From Paecilomyces variotii (Eukaryota): a DNA stretch of 64,000 bases. Below the pieces are notes generated by a model. That model saw nothing but the letters and a program-made list of their open reading frames with translations. It was not told where the DNA came from and did no database searches. Made by a program: the position numbers and the translations under genes. Location of the stretch: NCBI GenBank assembly GCA_004022145.1, contig RCNU01000001.1; one strand, written 5' to 3'. Within the stretch, counting starts at the first letter, position 1; each line of letters begins with the position of its first letter. Below, piece by piece: positions 30,554 to 44,542 of the stretch.

Positions 30554-32227
30554 TTAGTTTTCCCCTAGTATCTTGACACGAGTTGGCAACCCTTGCGACG
30601 GTTTAGCAGTAACGTCCAATGTCTGATACATGTAGGTGCCGTTTTCGTAGACCGTCTCAAAGTCAAAGGTGCGCAAAGTCATGACTAGAATGATTTTGAG
30701 CTGGATCAATGCCAACGTCTGCCCAAGACAAGTTCGCGGGCCCTTCTCGAAAGGCCGCCATGCGTCCTTGGGCACAAAGTACGGGTCCGTCGGATCAGTA
30801 ACAAGATGGCGCTCGGGGTAGAACTTCTCAGAGTCTTTGAACAGGTCTTCACGCCGCATTGTGGCGCAGTTATTCACGAGAACAGCGAAGGGGTATGTTG
30901 GCCATTCCCTGCCATCCGCTTTCAAGGTCTGACCTGGCTGTCCGCTCCGCAGACTAACACCTGTCGGTGGCCATAGTCTCAACGCTTCCTTGATGATTGC
31001 GAGAGTGTAATGGAGGTTGTTAACGAGTGCGGGATCCGTCCGGAGCATAACTGCAGCTCTAGAGGGGTCCTTGCCAAAGAGTGCTTCATGTTCTTCTCGA
31101 ACACGCTTAAGGATATGAGGGCTCTTGCCAAGTGCTGCGTATGTGTACTAAGAGACGAATTAGCTAACGTACGAGAGAAGTTGTATAGGTTCCAACTTAC
31201 GCAGAGAGTGCTAGCCGAGGTGTCGTGTCCGGCAAAGATCAAAGTCTTGACTGATGCAATCAGCATCTCGCGCGTGTCCTGATTGACAGATGCCTTTGCA
31301 TCGCCCGATATACTCTTATTGTTCAAACCGATTGCAATAGCGTCGTCAATGGCAAAATACTTGCTCTTCTCATCCACAGGCGCTGTAGCTGGTCCGTGGG
31401 CGATTCTCTTGTCCACGATACGGCCGACGTAGTTGTCAAGGGCACGTCCATTTTTCCATTTCCGGTAGTGCCGACTGGGACTGATATCGTACAAGTATCG
31501 CGACCAGAAGTCTTGAGGGGCGAGAGCTGCCTGCGCTCTGAAGAGTTCAAGGAACTCATCGTCATCTCTCTGGGCGTTGCATTCAATACCCCTACACCAC
31601 TGTTAGTGAATGGAACGAATCTATACTGGAGACGAAAAAAGCTCACAAAATAACCCTAGCGGATATATTGAAGATCATACGAGCGCACACGTCCTCCATT
31701 TTGAAAACATCTTCGTTTCTTGCGTGTTCTTTGAGGACTTCAGCGAACTGTAAAGCATTGTCCACAATACCAGGAACATGCTGCAACACTTTCCGCGGTT
31801 GGAAGCCCGGCGTGAACGACTTCCTTGCTACCAGCCATTCGTGTCCATTCGCAGTAACCATAGACTTCTTGCCAAGGATATGGCCAGTCCATTTCTGCAT
31901 GACAACCGACTCCTTTGGTAGATTCATCTTCTGGACAATTTGTGTCGCGAGTTCCGGTTGGACGATAACGAGCTGCGGTGGAGCGAGGGGCCATAGATCG
32001 AGGTAGAAGAAATCGCCCAAGCCATATCGCTTGCGCATCAAATGGGCGAAAAGTTGAGGAGTTGCATCAGGTGGTAGAGACCCTGCTATTTCTCGCATGA
32101 CCAAAAAGTGACCCCAGATAGCGTGATGCGGAGGACCAGGGAGATCTTTGAACATGCTTCGCTGCTGGCGCAGTCTCCAGAGGAAATAGACCACGAGGGC
32201 TACTACTGCGACGATTGGAATGAACAT
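30554..32227 (-). CDS. Cytochrome P450 monooxygenase
   Basis: N-terminal anchor MFIPIVAVVALVVYFLW, PGPP hinge, I-helix FAGHDTS, K-helix EALR, PERH and heme motif PFEKGPRTCLG. Two introns. Confidence 0.95.
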
Positions 32228-32778
32228 ATTGAGATTCGGTTGTCTTAGAGTTGGGTGTCCAAAGCCAAGAGTCGTCACCAGCGAAGATGCAGAGGTCAAG
32301 AGGTGAAGAGTGAATGATGTTTGAATAAAATTCAGCTTCAAGCATGGGCATTGCGGAATGAGGAGATGTGCTTGGAAGATATTATTTCATCTCGAGGGAC
32401 ATGCGTTCCATCGCTTTTATATCGATATTCCCGATGCCAATTTATTCCGCATAGACTCTCTCCTGTACTCTACTTAAACCGCTGAGCCTTAGGTCCAAAA
32501 CGCCCGATGCTATATTTGGCCGATTAGTCTACGTATATTTTTAGATGCATGGAAGCAATTTAGAACGCTACTTCAGGTACAACTATCCATGCGCATTTTC
32601 ATAGAAAATCTGCTTTACACTACCCTTGGGGCTAGCGTGATAATGTAAGTGCTGCTTCTCCACAATATACCTTAGGTAGGTAGTTTGGGGGCAGGAAAAT
32701 GGGCCACTTAGACCGACAGTGTACCTTAATATGGCAACATAATCGACGCCAACCTTATCTCAAATCCTTCCAGTTGCA

Positions 32779-34908: not shown

Positions 34909-35865
34909 TTAGCCAATGCTTAACAATAACAGAAAACAGAACGCCATGGCCAGAACAACTAGCCATAGCAGGATTCCAAGTACCATTGCTACCCGCTTGT
35001 AATACCTTAGATGGCCAGCCTCATTGCCATGCGGGAACGGATTCGGCCTTTGTCGTCCGAGGAACTCGCATAGCGGTGCCCAACCATCCTGGCACTTGAA
35101 GACTAGTAGTCTGTTTTTCGGCACGATCTTCTTCACCCAGGCACTGTGTGCATGATATAGTTCCACAGATGGCTCAGGAGGAAGATTATATCGCTCAGAT
35201 GCTAGTTGCATCCAGCCTCGGTAAAGGTCGTTGGCGGCGACGACGCCCGGTACCCAGTATCCGATCCAGCGGAAGCACTCAGACCGCAGGTCGATGCCAA
35301 AGCCATGCCATGAGTTGAGCCAGACTTTGGCTGAGGTGCGCTCGGTGAGGATCACTTTAGCGTCAGGGTACATTTCCAAGAGATCGGGCAAGCAAGCGCT
35401 TCCAGGAACTTCGAGTGTAGCTTCGCGACCATGGAAGAGCTTTGCTAGCTTGCGTCTTCTTAATGTTGTGTCCTTGGTGTGGACAATGTCGGCACTTAAT
35501 CTGAGATTCTCGAATTGACAGAGTGGCTCTGCAAGATGGAAACAATTGTTGTAGCCAAGCTCTTCTAGTGCTTTCTTCATGCTCATGGTACCAGTTCGTG
35601 GCAGTCCAGCCTGAAGAAGTACTCATTAGCTCAATTGTATCCTGGATATGTCCATATCAGAGGATCAACTTACCACAATGACCTTTATCGTTCCTCCATG
35701 ATGCACCCCTGCTGAGGACACACGTAGCCTGAGATCCGCCTTGGGATCGGGGCTGGTGATGCTGATACCCGCCTTGAGAATAAGCGGGAGCAGGTTCAGA
35801 CTGAGCTTGTGGTAGACCCATGAATTGGGCTTGTGGATATCTATCTGAACCCTTGGGCTCTGCAT
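34909..35865 (-). CDS. Sulfotransferase-like P-loop protein (Sulfotransfer_4 type) with C-terminal TM anchor
   Basis: Spliced IKVIVAGLPRTGTMSMKKALEELGY..CFH, YPDAKVILTER..W..S, VPKNRLLVF..DGWAPLCEFLG..P..PFPHGN, then a hydrophobic tail. Confidence 0.85.
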
Positions 35866-36635: not shown

Positions 36636-37840
36636 AACATACTCGGAAAAGACCTTCCACGCAAATAAAAATAGGGCACTGATCATGGGGCTGAAATCCT
36701 AGAATCATGGCCGAAACTGCACTATATGCCATCGCTCGCCACGAAAGAATCGGTGGGTATACTTGGGGTTAACTTGGTCTGAAGGATTGAAAGTGCGGGT
36801 CTTGGAGTCGAAATAACAAGACTGAGGATACAACACAAATGCTACTCTTTTGGGTCCATAACGATGACCATATGGAGAGATGTAACAGAGGTTGCCACAA
36901 TTTCCGAGAACGTACTACACGTCACTTTTCAGGAATAATCGCTATGTAATTTTCTGCAAAGCTACACTCCTACGCGGAAGTTTGAACTATCCATTGGCAT
37001 TACTGTCGCATTTTCAGTGCTGTACTTTGGAGAAACCACGCCCTTTTCAACGGAGTATTACTTTGAAAATGCCAAACTATTTGATCTTGTCTATAATATG
37101 TAAAAATAAAGGAGAAATTACTGGAAACCAGTTCGACCTCACGGGGGCTAGTTTGAAACTTTTGTCGTATAACTTTATTATAATCAAGTCTGAAGAGTCA
37201 TAGGTCTGGCGGATCTAGTACAGACACCGATAAAACTCTCAGCCGCACAGATTCTACTTTCCCGCAGATGATTAGAAGGTTGATAGAATTGGGTTTTAGT
37301 AAAATTCCTTTCCACGTGGCTGCAAGGAGCCAATGGCAAAATTTCTGAAACTATGATATTCGACTTGGCTACGTGGTGGGGGCTGAATAGAGATTCGTTA
37401 GGATTAACAGGAAGTACAGAAGCCATGTCAGCACACAAAGAGTGTGCATTGTGATCTGCAGTGCTATCCATTGGTATCGGGCTTTTTTAGTATGGGGCAG
37501 AATCCACTGAATCTTTTGGATCTATACTCAGTGTAATTAGAAAATCAACAGAGCCATCTTCCTTACATATAGAATCAAGCAATCAATTCAAGATTCTGCT
37601 AGATGCTGCAGTAGCTTTTTGCTTCCGTGTCCTTCTAAGGTCTAACAAGTTCTTGATATCCACGATGGTGATATTGAAATTGAATTCGTTCTAGTTACAA
37701 CGCAATGAACATGACGTATGAAAAACAAAACCAATATGCTCAAAAACAGCCCAAACTATCTATATGCACTTGAGTAATCTAGTAGATATAAAACCGCACT
37801 TTTTCAACTGATGCAGATGCGCGCTTATAAAGGATCTCAT

Positions 37841-38943
37841 CTAGGAGTCAGCGTTAACAGTGCACTGCTGGAAGGTGCCACCTGCTCCTTCAATCATCAC
37901 TCCCTGGAACTTGCCATCGGAGCCGCCAACAACACGGTATTTACCGGGAGATTGGTCTGTTGCAGAGACTACGGTTAGCTTCTACTCGACACAATATTGT
38001 AAAAGTGAGCGGGAGCTGAACAAGAACTTACCTCCATAGAAGGTTCCTCCTGGGATGATTGGGAATTCGAGCAGCTCCTTGGTAACACCCGGGTACACCT
38101 GGGAACCGCCGCTCATGTTGCCAAAGACTTCAGGGTATTTACCGTATGTACCGACAGCGTTGTCCTTCAGCTGCTTGAAGGCACTTCCGACATCGTCCTT
38201 GGACAGAGTGGTACCATCGGGGCAGGTAGCAGAGCCGACCTTCTTCTTCTTAGCACGGGCGGCGAGCTCGTTCGTCTGGGAGCTAGGGGAGGGAGCAGAT
38301 GTGTCTCGGACGGCGAGTTCATCATCGCCGCTGTCGTCGTTGTCGTCGCCATTGTCACCGTTGCCTTTCTTGTCGCCCTTGTCGCCCTTGTCCTTCTTGT
38401 CTTCCTTATCTTTGTCGTCGTCGTCGTCGTTGCGCTTGTCCTTGACAGGGGTGCAGGCTTCGTAGGCACCGGAAATGGTAGCACCAGTATGTTGCATTAC
38501 ACCCCTGAAGTCTCCGCGATTATTCTTGTAGTCAGTGACTACGCGGTATGCACCGGGGGGTCCTAAGAAGGGCTTTATGTTAGCATATCGCAAAACATGA
38601 TGTGAGCGTATTGGGACAATGTACCTCCTGTATACGCAGCACCAGAGATAATTGGGAACTCTCTAAGATCAGTGCCGTCAGGGATGTTCGAGAAGACTTT
38701 CCCCCCGCCACTCTTGTTTCCGAAGGGCTTAGGATAGCTGCGCGCGACGGTTCTATCGTCGTGGGCTCTGCACTCTTGGAGTGCAGTCTTGATATCATCT
38801 TTGGCAATCGTTGAGCCATCAGGACAAAGGTAGTCACTGAGCTTGGCTGCTCTCTTGGTGAGAGCGTTCTCCGCTGTAGAAGACGCGGGGATAGGAGAGG
38901 CATAGGCCACGGCGACGAGCCCGTAGAGGAAAACTGACTTCAT
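37841..38943 (-). CDS. Secreted polyprotein with two RNase T1/U2-fold domains
   Basis: Signal MKSVFLYGLVAVAYA, pro-site ALTKR. Domain 1: YPKPFGN..REFPII..GGPPGAYRVV..GVMQHTGA..ACT. Acidic linker. Domain 2: YPEVFGN..LEFPII..SPGKYRVV..GVMIEGA..QCT. Introns 38563-38624 and 37957-38031. Confidence 0.88.
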
Positions 38944-39999
38944 GTCGAAGAACATTTTGAATATAAAAAGTCAAGAGACCGAAAAAACAGACTTTGGGCT
39001 TTTCGGAACAAGAAATTGATCTATTCAAACAATAGAGGGATCGAGTTGGTAAAGCGCAAGACTGGAAATGCCTTCCAATTGATGCTGTTGCTGTTGTTGC
39101 TGTTGGATAGAGAGATCTGGTGTCGATGGTAAGGACCCTTATATAGACGATGAAGTACAATTTGGACCCATATTGGAATCAGTACAGTTTCTATTTTGGA
39201 TAACAACTTGTAGTCTCAGTAGATGGTCGGGGGCTGCAATCCTGATAGTCAGCTTGGCGGAGTACTCCATGAGCACCGATCTTAAGCACCTCAGGTCGTA
39301 GTAAAGTATAGGTCTTACTGAGATCCACTTCCTTCTACCCCAGACTATCCTCTGAAATAGAAAGATCAGCGTCCAAGGATACGCCGATAAGATACACTGT
39401 ACCTGGCCCCTACATGAAGATAGCATCTAGCCCCCAACGGTAGACTACTTACGCCGAGCCTGTACTTATCCTGCGACGCCTATCACCTCCACAGCAGCAA
39501 TGTCGCGTGGATGAAGACTTGGCGGCCCCAGAAGCGAGTCCAATGGCCCCCATCCAAGAGGAAATAAACTGACGATCCATAAGCACCATGATCCAAGTTC
39601 AAGTCCGGGAAAATTGATCGATGCAATCCGCCAAGGTCAACGTTAAGTCAACTAGTTAACTAGTTTAACTTACTTACCTAGGTAGTTAACTAAGTAACTA
39701 AGTCCTTGGCAATGAATAAGCAGAGGGGCTGGTTAATGAAGTTAGCCTAACCAGTTAACTAAATTTAGACTACCAGCTGCACTGCGCCATCACACTCGTC
39801 TCTAAAGTATACTCCGTACAATGTATGTATAAACTCGTTCTAGCCCCACTACTTAAGAATATCGATAAAAGCTCTGACACTGTCAACCCCTGCCAGTCTT
39901 CCAAAACACACATCGTCCTTCTTCATTTCATTCTCTTTTCCCTTCGTGATCTTTGAGAAGATACCTAGTGAAGTGTATCGTACTTGGGAGATCGCCAAT

Positions 40000-40948
40000 A
40001 TGGGAAGAGCCGACTTCATCAAGCAGGTCGAAAGTTCGGAAGAATTCAAGATTCTCGACTCGGTCACAAAGCACGATGCGACAGTTGATGATGCCCTGCA
40101 AAAGGTCATCGACATGACCATGGTTGCCACCACTGTGCATGGTCCAAACAGCCTCCAAGGCGCCGGCCTCGTCGACTACAACGTCGCCTTGGCTCTTATG
40201 GAGTTGTCCCAGCGCCTCGAGTCCGCTAAGCATGGCAAGCTCGTAGAGTTCATCTCAAAACTTCAAAAGCAGACCGCAACCGACCCATTAACGGGCGAGC
40301 CGCAAAAGATCCAGGGAGATACCCTTTGGACGGATCTACCGTCGTTTGGCTACACCGAACTAGAAACGTGGTACGAGTTCGGGGGTGAATACAAAGGTAA
40401 TTCATTCCTAACACCCATCAGTACTTGTTCATACCACTAACCAGCCACGATACTATCTAGATCCTCTCGATCCTAAGATGGATCCCGAGGAACAATCGCG
40501 ATGGGCCAACCTGAACGCTTTTCTCGCCCAACTGTGCCAAGCCACTGACGTCCACTATCCGTCTCCTGACGAAAAAGTCCTTTACCATCCTTTGGACAAA
40601 TCTCTTCGGGGACTGTGGACGCTCCAGAAGGCGCTTGAAAACGGAGACCATCCTCCCGAAACACTTATTGGCACAGTTGCTCTGCGGGCCACATGTCTGT
40701 GGTTTATCCACGCCGCTGACCGGCTGTGGGCCAATGTTAAGAACGGTCGCACGTACCCTCAAGCCTCAGGAGCTGGACATGCAAGTGGAAAATATGCGCC
40801 GCGAGGCTGGAAGGGGTTTGAGAAAGAGAGGTGGGATATCTGGGTGCAGGGTCTGCAGGATGCCAAAGCAGCGTCTACTGATGAAGAGGAGAAGGCATTG
40901 ATTGCAGATGCTCTGGCACACATTAAGAGCGCGACGGAAAGTGGCTAG
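40000..40948 (+). CDS. DUF3632-like cytoplasmic protein
   Basis: HGKLVEFI..L, LWTDLPSFG..E, WANLNAFLAQL, ATCLWFIHAADRLW, GFEKERWDIW. Intron 40397-40460. Confidence 0.8.
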
Positions 40949-43017: not shown

Positions 43018-43708
43018 ATGGTGGACTGATTCTTGTTCCACTGTCGTGCGTCAGTCTTGTATATACATAATTAAAGCGATACCATATATTCCATACTATC
43101 ATGTTACTCACGCGTCTTGAATTTCGAATTTCTGCTGTCATTATCCTAACGAGAACGCTTCCTTGGAATATTGCTCCACGACCTGTCCTAGAAGAGATGG
43201 CCTCGATGATCGCTGTGCGTGTTGGAAAGACAGCTGCATCAGCGGGAATGCGGAATAAGGGGTTTCATAGACGGAGGAATCTATTAGATTGCATTAAACC
43301 TAGGTTATTGTAACGGTCTATAAACGGCTATTTATTCTCAGTCTGGCAGATACTTAGCGGAACACCGTTAGAAGCCATCCAATCCAGATCAACTTCGAAC
43401 CGGATGAGGCACTCTGCGAGACATTTCCTTTGGGAATTATGTACGTAGGTACTTCAGAGTGAGCCTCACAATCAATTGTAGCTGACCATTCACGAATCAA
43501 AACCATGTATAGATAGAATAGAATGTTGCTATTGCTGGTTCGCTCCACCCGGAGTTTAATCTCTTCGGAACCCCACTAATGTACTTAGAATTCTATTCCG
43601 AAACTGTCGTCGAAAAAGACTAATAGTAAGCAGCTACCCTACCTAGTCAACTATACTCACTTCATAATCCATCTTCTCGTTCCATCCAGAACGGAATTTT
43701 CTTTTAAC

Positions 43709-44542
43709 ATGTCGCAAATCCCCAGTGACGCCCTCGATTTCCCGGACTCCGATCGGAAGTTCCTGGAACCTCATCTCCCACCTCGGAATGGCGAGATCAA
43801 GAGTCCTAACTTGCCATTCACAACAGTGACATTTGCCATGTCACTAGATGCATCTCTGGCGATCTCACCGGGAGTCCGAACGGTCCTGTCGGGACCTCAG
43901 TCCAAGGCAATGACGCATTATCTACGCTCTCGTCACGATGCTATCTTAATTGGCGTTGGTACCGCTCTAGCAGACGATCCTGGTCTGAATTGTCGCATAG
44001 AGGGCGTGGGCGGATACGGCGGCGAGAGTCTGCAAGGCCAGCCTAGGCCTATTATCATTGATCCTTCGGCTAGATGGGAATTTACGGAAGAGGCTAAGAT
44101 CTTGAAACTCGTCAACGAAGGCCGTGGGCGTGCTCCGTATATCGTTACTGGCAAGCATTCACCTCCGGTGAAACAGAAGGAGATCCTTGAAGAGCACGGT
44201 GGGAAGTATCTTACTATGGATATCACTACGACGGAAGCTGGAGCTCATCGGTTCGACTGGACCGTCCTGCTGGAGAGGTTGAAGAAAGAGGGTCTAAACA
44301 GCGTCATGATTGAAGGCGGTGCTGTTATTATCAATTCTCTCCTGGATCCCTCGTCTCAGGCGCTGATTGATAGTGTGATCATCACGATCGCACCAACGTG
44401 GCTGGGTCGAGGTGGGGTGGTTGTCTCACCTGAACGACGATATGATAGTGGTGGCAATTCCATTCCGGTATCACGTCTCTCGGACGTAAAGTGGTATCCC
44501 TTTGGTGAAGATGTTGTGCTCTGTGGAAAGATCAAACACTAA
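43709..44542 (+). CDS. rib7: RibD-C reductase of riboflavin biosynthesis (Rib7)
   Basis: PFTTVTFAMSLDA, THYLRSRHDAILIGVGTALADDPGLNCR, SVMIEGGA. Single exon. Confidence 0.9.
   Translation: MSQIPSDALDFPDSDRKFLEPHLPPRNGEIKSPNLPFTTVTFAMSLDASLAISPGVRTVLSGPQSKAMTHYLRSRHDAILIGVGTALADDPGLNCRIEGVGGYGGESLQGQPRPIIIDPSARWEFTEEAKILKLVNEGRGRAPYIVTGKHSPPVKQKEILEEHGGKYLTMDITTTEAGAHRFDWTVLLERLKKEGLNSVMIEGGAVIINSLLDPSSQALIDSVIITIAPTWLGRGGVVVSPERRYDSGGNSIPVSRLSDVKWYPFGEDVVLCGKIKH

Follow-up and report, generated by a model that had tools for sequence, protein, structure and literature searches.

A conserved precursor with two ribonuclease T1-fold domains, altered catalytic positions and predicted kexin sites in Paecilomyces variotii

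Ribonuclease (RNase) T1 is a textbook enzyme whose relatives include the ribotoxins and large families of RNase-like effectors of plant pathogens. To our knowledge, all characterised members of the RNase T1 family consist of a single domain. Here we describe a gene of Paecilomyces variotii whose product carries two such domains, termed D1 and D2. It lies on the minus strand of a 64,000-nucleotide (nt) stretch of contig RCNU01000001.1 (assembly GCA_004022145.1), which is referred to as the window throughout. A first-pass annotation, made from the sequence of the window, had proposed this architecture and had pointed out that characterised T1-family enzymes are single-domain; consistent with the latter, a search of open-access papers and bioRxiv returned no report on a protein with tandem T1 domains or on this family. 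The gene represents a conserved and apparently unstudied tandem family.

Gene model and layout of the precursor

Reading of the window over positions 37400-39400 revealed a three-exon gene at 37841-38955 that encodes 325 amino acids (aa) plus stop. The gene and the parts of its product are arranged as follows:

37841..38955, minus strand: whole coding region; three exons and two introns; product equal to P0045, splicing seen in RNA contigs
38625..38955, minus strand: exon 1; signal peptide, propeptide and N-terminal two thirds of D1; ends in phase 1
38563..38624, minus strand: intron 1; 62 nt, GT..AG, phase 1; within D1, directly before xPGxYRVV
38032..38562, minus strand: exon 2; C-terminal third of D1, spacer and N-terminal two thirds of D2
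37957..38031, minus strand: intron 2; 75 nt, GTAAGT..CAG, phase 1
37841..37956, minus strand: exon 3; C-terminal third of D2; stop codon TAG at 37843-37841
38899..38955, minus strand: predicted signal peptide; MFFDMKSVFLYGLVAVAYA, aa 1-19; hydrophobic core, Ala at -3 and -1
38851..38898, minus strand: N-terminal propeptide; SPIPASSTAENALTKR, aa 20-35; ends in dibasic L-T-K-R
38432..38850, minus strand: domain D1; aa 36-154, spanning intron 1; RNase T1 fold; ends in VKDKR
38255..38431, minus strand: spacer; aa 155-213; Asp/Lys-rich run, ELAVR, Ser/Pro-rich 17-mer, ELAAR
37844..38254, minus strand: domain D2; aa 214-325, spanning intron 2; RNase T1 fold; AKKKK-led

The splicing proposed at first was confirmed by contigs of four RNA-library runs, which were aligned to 37700-39100. 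In three of the four runs (X1, X2 and X8), stemming from three studies, the contigs skip exactly both introns, with joints at 37956>38032 and 38561>38624 (cut +1), where CT..AC on the plus strand equals GT..AG on the minus strand. The gene is transcribed, and its transcripts are spliced as the gene model states, also in food-fermentation metatranscriptomes; the contigs carry no ranking of expression level. The contig of the fourth run, X5, is unspliced and 10,004 letters long. It deviates from the window at 13 letters and by a GTC insertion of 9 bases, and it represents either genomic DNA or a pre-mRNA of another strain. Both introns are in phase 1 and fall into the same column of the D1/D2 alignment. 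In other species, intron-blind fragments of the open reading frame (ORF) stop matching at both intron places: the P0064 fragment runs into junk after YTGG, the fragments P0034, P0036, P0037, P0038, P0040, P0063, P0065 and P0084 after GGTWT. The spliced X1 contig measures 1923 nt and extends 612 nt past 39100, so that it reaches about 750 nt beyond the start codon on the upstream side; either the 5' leader is very long, or the transcript overlaps that of the divergent DUF3632 gene.

The first-pass annotation had placed the gene at 37841..38943, and its end was found to be correct. Its start, 38943, is the second in-frame ATG, from which a protein of 321 aa would be made that still contains ALTKR, VKDKR, the charged spacer, ELAVR, ELAAR and AKKKK, i.e. 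all the elements listed at that time, on the minus strand. Initiation at 38955 adds MFFD and yields a product identical to P0045, an NCBI hypothetical protein of P. variotii (10 contigs), of which 320/324 residues are identical in P0001 from another strain. The ATG at 38955 is the more likely start codon of the two, because the first Met is conserved, along with an M-x-F-D/N-x-K-S pattern, and the second is not: in P0019, P0022 and P0005 its place is taken by F, L or I. The signal peptide was assigned by eye; residues A19, S20 and P21 are invariant or almost so among 29 aligned full-length relatives, which are the basis of all column counts given below.

That two RNase T1-like domains reside within one spliced, secreted precursor was supported by profile and by fold. 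PF00545 matched P0001, which is 99% identical to the window protein, in two stretches and with 71 bits against a cut-off of 24. Two stretches, the outcome expected by the first-pass annotation, were likewise obtained for 11/11 two-domain proteins scanned, and one stretch for the single-domain protein P0042. Scanned exon by exon, the window gave 27.8 bits for exon 2 and a weak match of 13.7 bits for the 37-aa piece of exon 3. D1 and D2 match each other with E values of 2.8e-15 and 9.3e-14 at 33-37% identity. An AlphaFold2 model of full-length P0001, built on an alignment of 29 sequences, reached predicted local distance difference test (pLDDT) values of 79-95 over both domains (means of 10-residue blocks) and values <50 at residues 10-33 and 153-217 (P0001 numbering), while a predicted template modelling score (pTM) of 0.40 means that the placing of the domains relative to each other is not predicted. 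Foldseek returned RNases Po1, F1, T1 and U2 as best matches, from E 1.4e-05. With VIA-align, D2 (model residues 222-324) was superposed on RNase F1 (1fus) with Z 13.9 and a root-mean-square deviation (rmsd) of 2.0 over 98 aligned residues, and D1 (model residues 38-149) on RNase He1 (6ls1) with Z 12.9 and rmsd 2.5 over 99. Hence each domain has its own profile match and the alpha+beta T1 fold by which membership in PF00545 was judged. Taken alone, the gene model and the domain calls are near certain.

Catalytic positions and conservation of the two domains

The residues at RNase T1 positions 40/58/77/92 were read from a HMMER alignment to T1 chains for D1 and through the D1/D2 alignment for D2. 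D1 of the window comprises Lys/Glu/Arg/His, the alignment being anchored by REFPI on Glu58, YRVV on Arg77 and QHTG on His92. Lys76 (codon 38728-38730) occupies the His40 position, while Glu99, Arg117 and His135 (codon 38489-38491) are kept. D2 of the window comprises Glu/Glu/Arg/Glu, with one Glu at the His40 position (38129-38131) and one at the His92 position (37889-37891). These assignments agree with what had been seen by eye in the first-pass annotation, namely Lys, Glu, Arg and His in D1, and in D2 a Glu at the His40 position along with the loss of His92. Neither window domain possesses the full catalytic set of a canonical RNase T1-type enzyme. Among the 29 relatives, the positions are occupied as follows:

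His40 position, D1: Ala 22, Phe 3, Lys 2, Ser 1, Glu 1; no His
His40 position, D2: His 27, Glu 2 (both Paecilomyces)
Glu58: D1 29/29, D2 28/29
Arg77: D1 29/29, D2 28/29
His92 position: D1 His 29/29, D2 Glu 29/29

The two domains thus show a reciprocal and family-wide fixed asymmetry: D1 lacks His40, whereas D2 lacks His92 and nearly always has His40. The full tetrad His40/Glu58/Arg77/His92 occurs in 0/29 D1 and in 0/29 D2. Counterparts of Tyr38, Glu58, Arg77 and Phe100 are kept in both domains, as is the cysteine pair that links the N- to the C-terminal part. An interdomain disulfide via the third cysteine of each domain was considered but not adopted; it may form where both are present, yet D2 is without this cysteine in 5/29 relatives, including the window.

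The first-pass annotation held D1 to be likely active. For the window this gains some support, since Lys seems to be the milder case of His40 replacement: the best sequence match of D1 in the PDB is the RNase T1 His40Lys mutant 2aad (E 4.8e-08), which is called partially active in the title of its entry, and a 2024 paper reports that the T1 His40Ala mutant had lost its activity, whereas His40Lys retained part of it (PMC11487538). For the family the claim is less safe, given the Ala in 22/29 relatives. Lys at this position is common in nature: the tetrad was complete in 80 domains of representatives (see below), and 12 of these are K-E-R-H.

The base-binding loop of D1 differs as well. The YNNYEGFDF of RNase T1 aligns with PFGNKSGGGKVF, and no acidic residue stands in the column of Glu46, so that D1 has no guanine-recognition loop with a Glu46 counterpart as judged by this HMMER alignment, which is a single pairwise comparison over a gapped loop and not firm. 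The counterpart of the guanine-binding loop further contains an N-x-S sequon (FGN-K/M-S), at 38710-38718 in D1 and at 38111-38119 in D2, which occurs in 21/29 D1 and 27/29 D2. Between the strands of Arg77 and His92, D1 has a loop with an RGD tripeptide (NRGDF; 38476-38484, aa 126-128 of P0045). It is found in 25/29 relatives, and D2 has a 3-residue deletion at exactly that place.

Given these features, one might speculate that both domains are non-catalytic RNase-like binders, comparable to the pseudo-RNase effectors of powdery mildews, and serve in interorganism interactions. Such a view fits to the lack of any full tetrad, to the sequon in the base-binding loop and to the match of Blumeria AVR RNase-like effectors to the model at Z 10.8-11.1. 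In addition, a quick tree, which was poorly resolved (55/99 inner branches open), placed D1 and D2 into a clade (Shimodaira-Hasegawa-like approximate likelihood ratio test, SH-aLRT, 94) apart from the mostly canonical H-E-R-H T1-type proteins. However, the invariance of Glu58, Arg77 and His92 in D1 (29/29 each) is hard to explain without catalysis. Barnase and RNase Sa, bacterial members of the family, are active without a His40 counterpart, which speaks against this alternative too. So does the partial activity reported for the T1 His40Lys mutant (PMC11487538). We therefore consider the non-catalytic alternative improbable.

The status of D2 is a separate matter. It had been regarded as a pseudo domain or dead paralogue, and this part of the first-pass annotation did not hold. 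The mean pairwise identity is 77% for D1 and 76% for D2, compared to 34% for the spacer, His40 is kept in 27/29 D2, and Glu at the His92 position in 29/29. Moreover, D2-type proteins exist alone. To examine the wider clade, a profile search was conducted against 1.84 billion representatives, which delivered 128 proteins at E <= 0.001, of which 125 were examined and three were already in hand. Of the 80 complete tetrads, 40 are H-E-R-H, 12 K-E-R-H, 6 E-E-R-H, 4 A-E-R-H, 4 K-E-R-K, 2 H-E-R-E and 1 E-E-R-E. The two H-E-R-E proteins (P0093 of Neoarthrinium moseri and P0102 of Annulohypoxylon moriforme) and the E-E-R-E protein (P0092) are single-domain, D2-type proteins with a signal peptide of their own. 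Because D2 is as conserved as D1 and because D2-type proteins occur alone, sequence comparison indicates that D2 is no copy in decay. Proteins of the D1 type, in turn, exist on their own as P0042 (Penicillium oxalicum), P0043 (P. diatomitis) and P0083. In P0088 (Xylariales sp. PMI_506), D1 appears by eye as a short remnant between its terminal cysteines, while the acidic spacer and D2 are kept. P0085 (Helicocarpus griseus) has a truncated D1 as well, with spacer and D2 kept; its D2 may have a His in the His92 column (E-E-R-H), the alignment being ambiguous there.

The tandem architecture itself is conserved in Aspergillus, Penicillium, Paecilomyces, Onygenales and Xylariales. Both YPxxF[GRS]N motifs were detected in 34/44 matches, and the two-motif proteins stem from Aspergillus, Penicillium, Paecilomyces, Pestalotiopsis, Pseudomassariella, Arachnomyces and Helicocarpus. 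In the quick tree, D1 forms one group (SH-aLRT 96) and D2 groups with the stand-alone H-E-R-E and K-E-R-K proteins; the order of events, i.e. fusion of paralogues versus internal duplication, was not drawn from this tree. Longer or fused forms of 570-2000 aa were not obtained at E <= 0.001, which is weak evidence.

Some further observations concern the distribution of the family. P0130 of Pleurotus (312 aa, two H-E-R-H domains) was considered as a second kind of tandem and rejected due to an apparent second signal peptide in the middle of the protein; it probably represents two adjacent genes merged by annotation. The models of A. fumigatus (P0044, P0059 and P0060) are short, with 184, 265 and 121 aa, and in P0044 the last part of D1 and the whole of D2 are missing, while the full forms of A. 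fischeri and A. lentulus comprise 354-359 aa; the short forms could reflect a degraded gene or poor models. Many single-domain relatives (P0083-P0207) share the start M-L/F-F-N/D-x-K-S...GL.A...ASP with the tandem family, their domains being far diverged, which suggests a conserved cassette of signal peptide and propeptide within the clade.

The neighbouring ORF pieces in the window match the following families:

30554-32386, minus strand: cytochrome P450
33127-34099, plus strand: DUF7702/RTA1-like
34909-35622, minus strand: Sulfotransfer_4
39844-40948, plus strand: DUF3632
43589-44542, plus strand: RibD_C

None of these families suggests a link to the RNase gene, and the idea of a functional cluster was dropped.

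Spacer, predicted processing and proposed working

At motif level the protein has the make-up of a kexin-type precursor, that is a signal peptide and disordered segments that end in KR/RR or LxxR, and the spacer, predicted to be disordered, is flanked by KR and LxxR motifs just as the first-pass annotation stated. KR/RR and an expanded LxxR are the Kex2 motifs by which fungal pro-domains have been detected (PMC8528282). The N-terminal propeptide ends in KR in 28/29 relatives, with Leu at P4 in 24/29. The homologous KR after D1 is present in 23/29 (24/29 by regular expression, which includes a non-homologous CKR in P0035). The junction before D2 comprises Leu at P4 in 28/29, Arg at P1 in 28/29 and Thr (22) or Ala (5) at P2, and is followed by KKKK in about 28/29 relatives. 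Thr belongs to the residues that yeast Kex2 tolerates comparatively well at P2. A literature search on P. variotii secretome data returned nothing relevant, and we infer cleavage at all three sites from their motifs.

The same kind of junction is widespread within the clade. In 59/83 first domains of the representatives, [LIVF]xxR lies <=22 aa before the first domain Cys, where roughly 20/83 would be expected by chance according to a rough estimate, and mostly it reads L-x-A-R followed by A/G/S/M and lysines. Stand-alone D2-type proteins consist of a signal peptide, a propeptide that ends in ETR before AKSKK or in LEIR before AKKKK (P0093, P0094), and the domain. Mature RNase T1 starts after an L-V-E-R site; its precursor was not among the proteins compared here. 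Since the LxxR-then-basic junction is the usual propeptide junction of the clade, the spacer is best read as D2's own propeptide, presumably kept when both units came into one frame.

The spacer varies widely. Its length ranges from 17 to 131 aa at 34% mean pairwise identity, and in Aspergillus P0008, P0010, P0013 and P0016 a spacer unit is repeated between DLTKR sites. In the window, its Asp/Lys run is encoded by a (GTC)5.7 microsatellite (38414-38430) and a 27-nt/9-nt repeat (38345-38401). Strains of P. variotii differ in spacer length at the (GTC)n run, their proteins comprising 321-329 aa, and an RNA-library contig carries the insertion +GTCGTCGTC at 38413. The net charge is -11 and -12 in the two Paecilomyces and -9 to +4 in the other 27 relatives, 16 of which are near neutral (-3 to +4). 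The release of an acidic peptide, as suggested in the first-pass annotation, finds no counterpart in the family: the spacer is strongly acidic in Paecilomyces only, and it resembles a propeptide retained by D2 more than a bioactive peptide under conservation.

Two potential fates of the precursor could be envisioned. According to the first, it would remain an uncut two-domain enzyme in which D1 is catalytic and D2 serves as a tethered RNA-binding or surface-anchoring module on a flexible, charged linker. This fits to the monobasic site before D2, with its Thr or Ala at P2, to the 6/29 relatives without KR after D1, and to the fact that both domains are always found in one reading frame among the relatives seen. 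Besides, the counterparts of Tyr38 and Phe100 are invariant in D2, Glu58/Arg77 are kept in 28/29 and His40 in 27/29, so a binding pocket may persist. However, the LxxR-then-basic junction ends the propeptide of single-domain relatives (59/83), a linker that varies from 17 to 131 aa with 34% identity is poorly constrained, the spacer repeats between DLTKR sites in some Aspergillus resemble a processed repeat, and the negative charge of Glu at the His92 position would be expected to hinder the binding of phosphate. We thus regard an uncut enzyme as unlikely.

According to the second scenario, which we prefer, a kexin of the KexB/Kex2 type would cut the precursor in the late secretory pathway after LTKR, KDKR and ELAAR. 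These cuts would release D1 (~119 aa) and D2 (112 aa), each of about 12-13 kDa, while the spacer, putatively homologous to the propeptide that precedes the same LxxR-then-basic junction in stand-alone relatives, would be discarded. Like the partially active His40Lys mutant of T1, D1 would be a weakened but probably working endoribonuclease; its base-binding loop is altered. D2, with His/Glu/Arg/Glu in most relatives, would be unable to use the normal general-acid step of His92, and might rather be a conserved RNase-like protein with a role of its own, most likely binding of RNA or a ligand without ordinary cleavage. The products are probably not obligatorily interdependent, because each domain type is also found as a single-domain gene. 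As activity of D1, inactivity of D2 and kexin processing are all derived from sequence, we give this reading as a whole about an even chance.

Several points weigh against it. The three cleavages are predictions from motifs, the site before D2 with its Thr or Ala at P2 is no classic dibasic one, and in the 6/29 relatives that lack KR after D1, this domain would keep a spacer tail or another protease would act. The activity of D1 is uncertain, since 22/29 relatives have Ala at the His40 position and lost activity is reported for T1 His40Ala (PMC11487538). Its loop FGNKSGGGKVF differs from the base-binding loop of T1, without a counterpart of Glu46, and if the sequon in it were glycosylated, a glycan could sit on the base-binding site and block base binding. 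The invariant Glu at the His92 position of D2 does not imply inactivity and could support unusual chemistry. Finally, the stand-alone forms are automatic gene models that could be truncated annotations, and the poor resolution of the quick tree has to be kept in mind.

Two further alternatives assign a joint task to the parts of the precursor. In the first-pass annotation, D2 or the acidic spacer was suggested to act as a built-in inhibitor or chaperone, or D2 to be a delivery subunit. An inhibitor or chaperone of this kind would hold D1 silent, or help it to stay folded, on its way through the secretory pathway until the kexin cuts. The strongly acidic spacer of Paecilomyces (-11, -12) could mimic nucleic acid, D2 begins with an invariant basic KKKK, and a 2026 preprint describes an N-terminal extension that restrains a catalytically competent RNase-like effector (10.64898/2026.08.13.744637). 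In contrast, the D1-only genes P0042, P0043 and P0083 indicate that D1 folds and is secreted without D2 or spacer, which argues against an obligatory partner. Furthermore, the spacer is poorly conserved, with a charge of -9 to +4 in the other 27 relatives (near neutral in 16), stand-alone D2-type proteins begin with KKKK as well, and at a pTM of 0.40 the model does not confidently dock the two domains. A prediction of the D1-D2 complex (P0001 residues 36-154 versus 217-328), run without alignment or controls, delivered a score of 0.00 and a mark of 0.34 and counts neither for nor against binding. The analysis lent no support to the inhibitor, chaperone or delivery role, to which we assign only a slim chance.

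Alternatively, the precursor might give rise to a two-subunit secreted RNase system similar to a killer preprotoxin, whose subunits would cooperate once the kexin has removed the spacer. D2, with its basic KKKK start and blocked site, would then bind the target cell or RNA, or the two half-crippled sites, lacking His40 in D1 and His92 in D2, would complement each other in a heterodimer. If true, this would explain the reciprocal pattern kept in nearly every relative. The single-domain genes of each type point, if indirectly, against a need for both domains together, and we deem such a system a rather remote prospect.

Whichever reading applies, what is new here is the conserved tandem form, present in many Aspergillus and Penicillium species, in which D1 and D2 lack different catalytic histidines and are equally constrained. 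It represents a natural experiment on the role of a T1 fold once canonical catalysis has been altered, and a tractable case for asking whether fungal kexins process monobasic LxxR sites that lie between two folded domains. Beyond the tandem form, it draws attention to a wider secreted T1-like clade whose members have in common a typical signal peptide, a propeptide that ends at an LxxR junction and active sites that depart from the canonical set; automatic annotation lumps them with the guanyl-specific RNases.

Comparison with known systems

Compared to the RNases T1, F1, Po1 and He1, the tandem domains share the alpha+beta fold (Z 12.9-13.9, rmsd 2.0-2.5 over 96-99 residues), the PF00545 match and secretion with a short propeptide. 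They differ in that there are two domains per precursor and no full catalytic set, in a longer base-recognition loop without a counterpart of Glu46, and in forming a separate clade in the quick tree. The T1 His40Lys mutant (2aad/2aae) has Lys at the same position as D1, but it is an engineered single substitution within a canonical enzyme, whereas D1 is natural, ~30% identical and equipped with another base-binding loop.

With regard to layout, the killer preprotoxins K1 and KP6 come to mind. Both are of the pro-alpha-gamma-beta type and cut by Kex2, and the subunits of KP6 are similar in fold. The order of signal, pro-region, subunit 1, excised spacer flanked by basic sites and subunit 2 is common to these toxins and the tandem precursor. 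However, the fold is unrelated, each domain type of the tandem also exists as a single gene, and a joint action of D1 and D2 is only putative.

A signal peptide and a disordered pro-region that ends in KR or LxxR are shared with the Kex2-processed pro-domain (K2PP) effectors (PMC8528282), and the spacer repeats between DLTKR sites in some Aspergillus relatives are similar to the Kex2-processed repeat proteins (KEPs; PMC7329392 and PMC9769878). Here, in contrast, cleavage at the predicted sites would part two folded domains of enzyme type, and neither set free short peptides nor take off a single N-terminal pro-domain.

Finally, the T1-type core is common to the RALPH/AVR effectors (AVRA22, AVRA10 and AVRPM2 at Z 10.8-11.1) and to the ribotoxins (restrictocin Z 11.3, alpha-sarcin Z 10.4). 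The tandem domains are no ribotoxins: D1 comprises 119 and D2 112 residues, compared to 142-150 with extra loops, and the matches to 1aqz and 1de3, with 105-106 residues aligned at Z 10.4-11.3, rank below those to T1-type enzymes. D2 resembles the RALPHs in its incomplete catalytic set. However, while most catalytic residues are gone from the RALPHs, three of the four positions are intact in the D2 of most relatives, and the fourth is invariably Glu.

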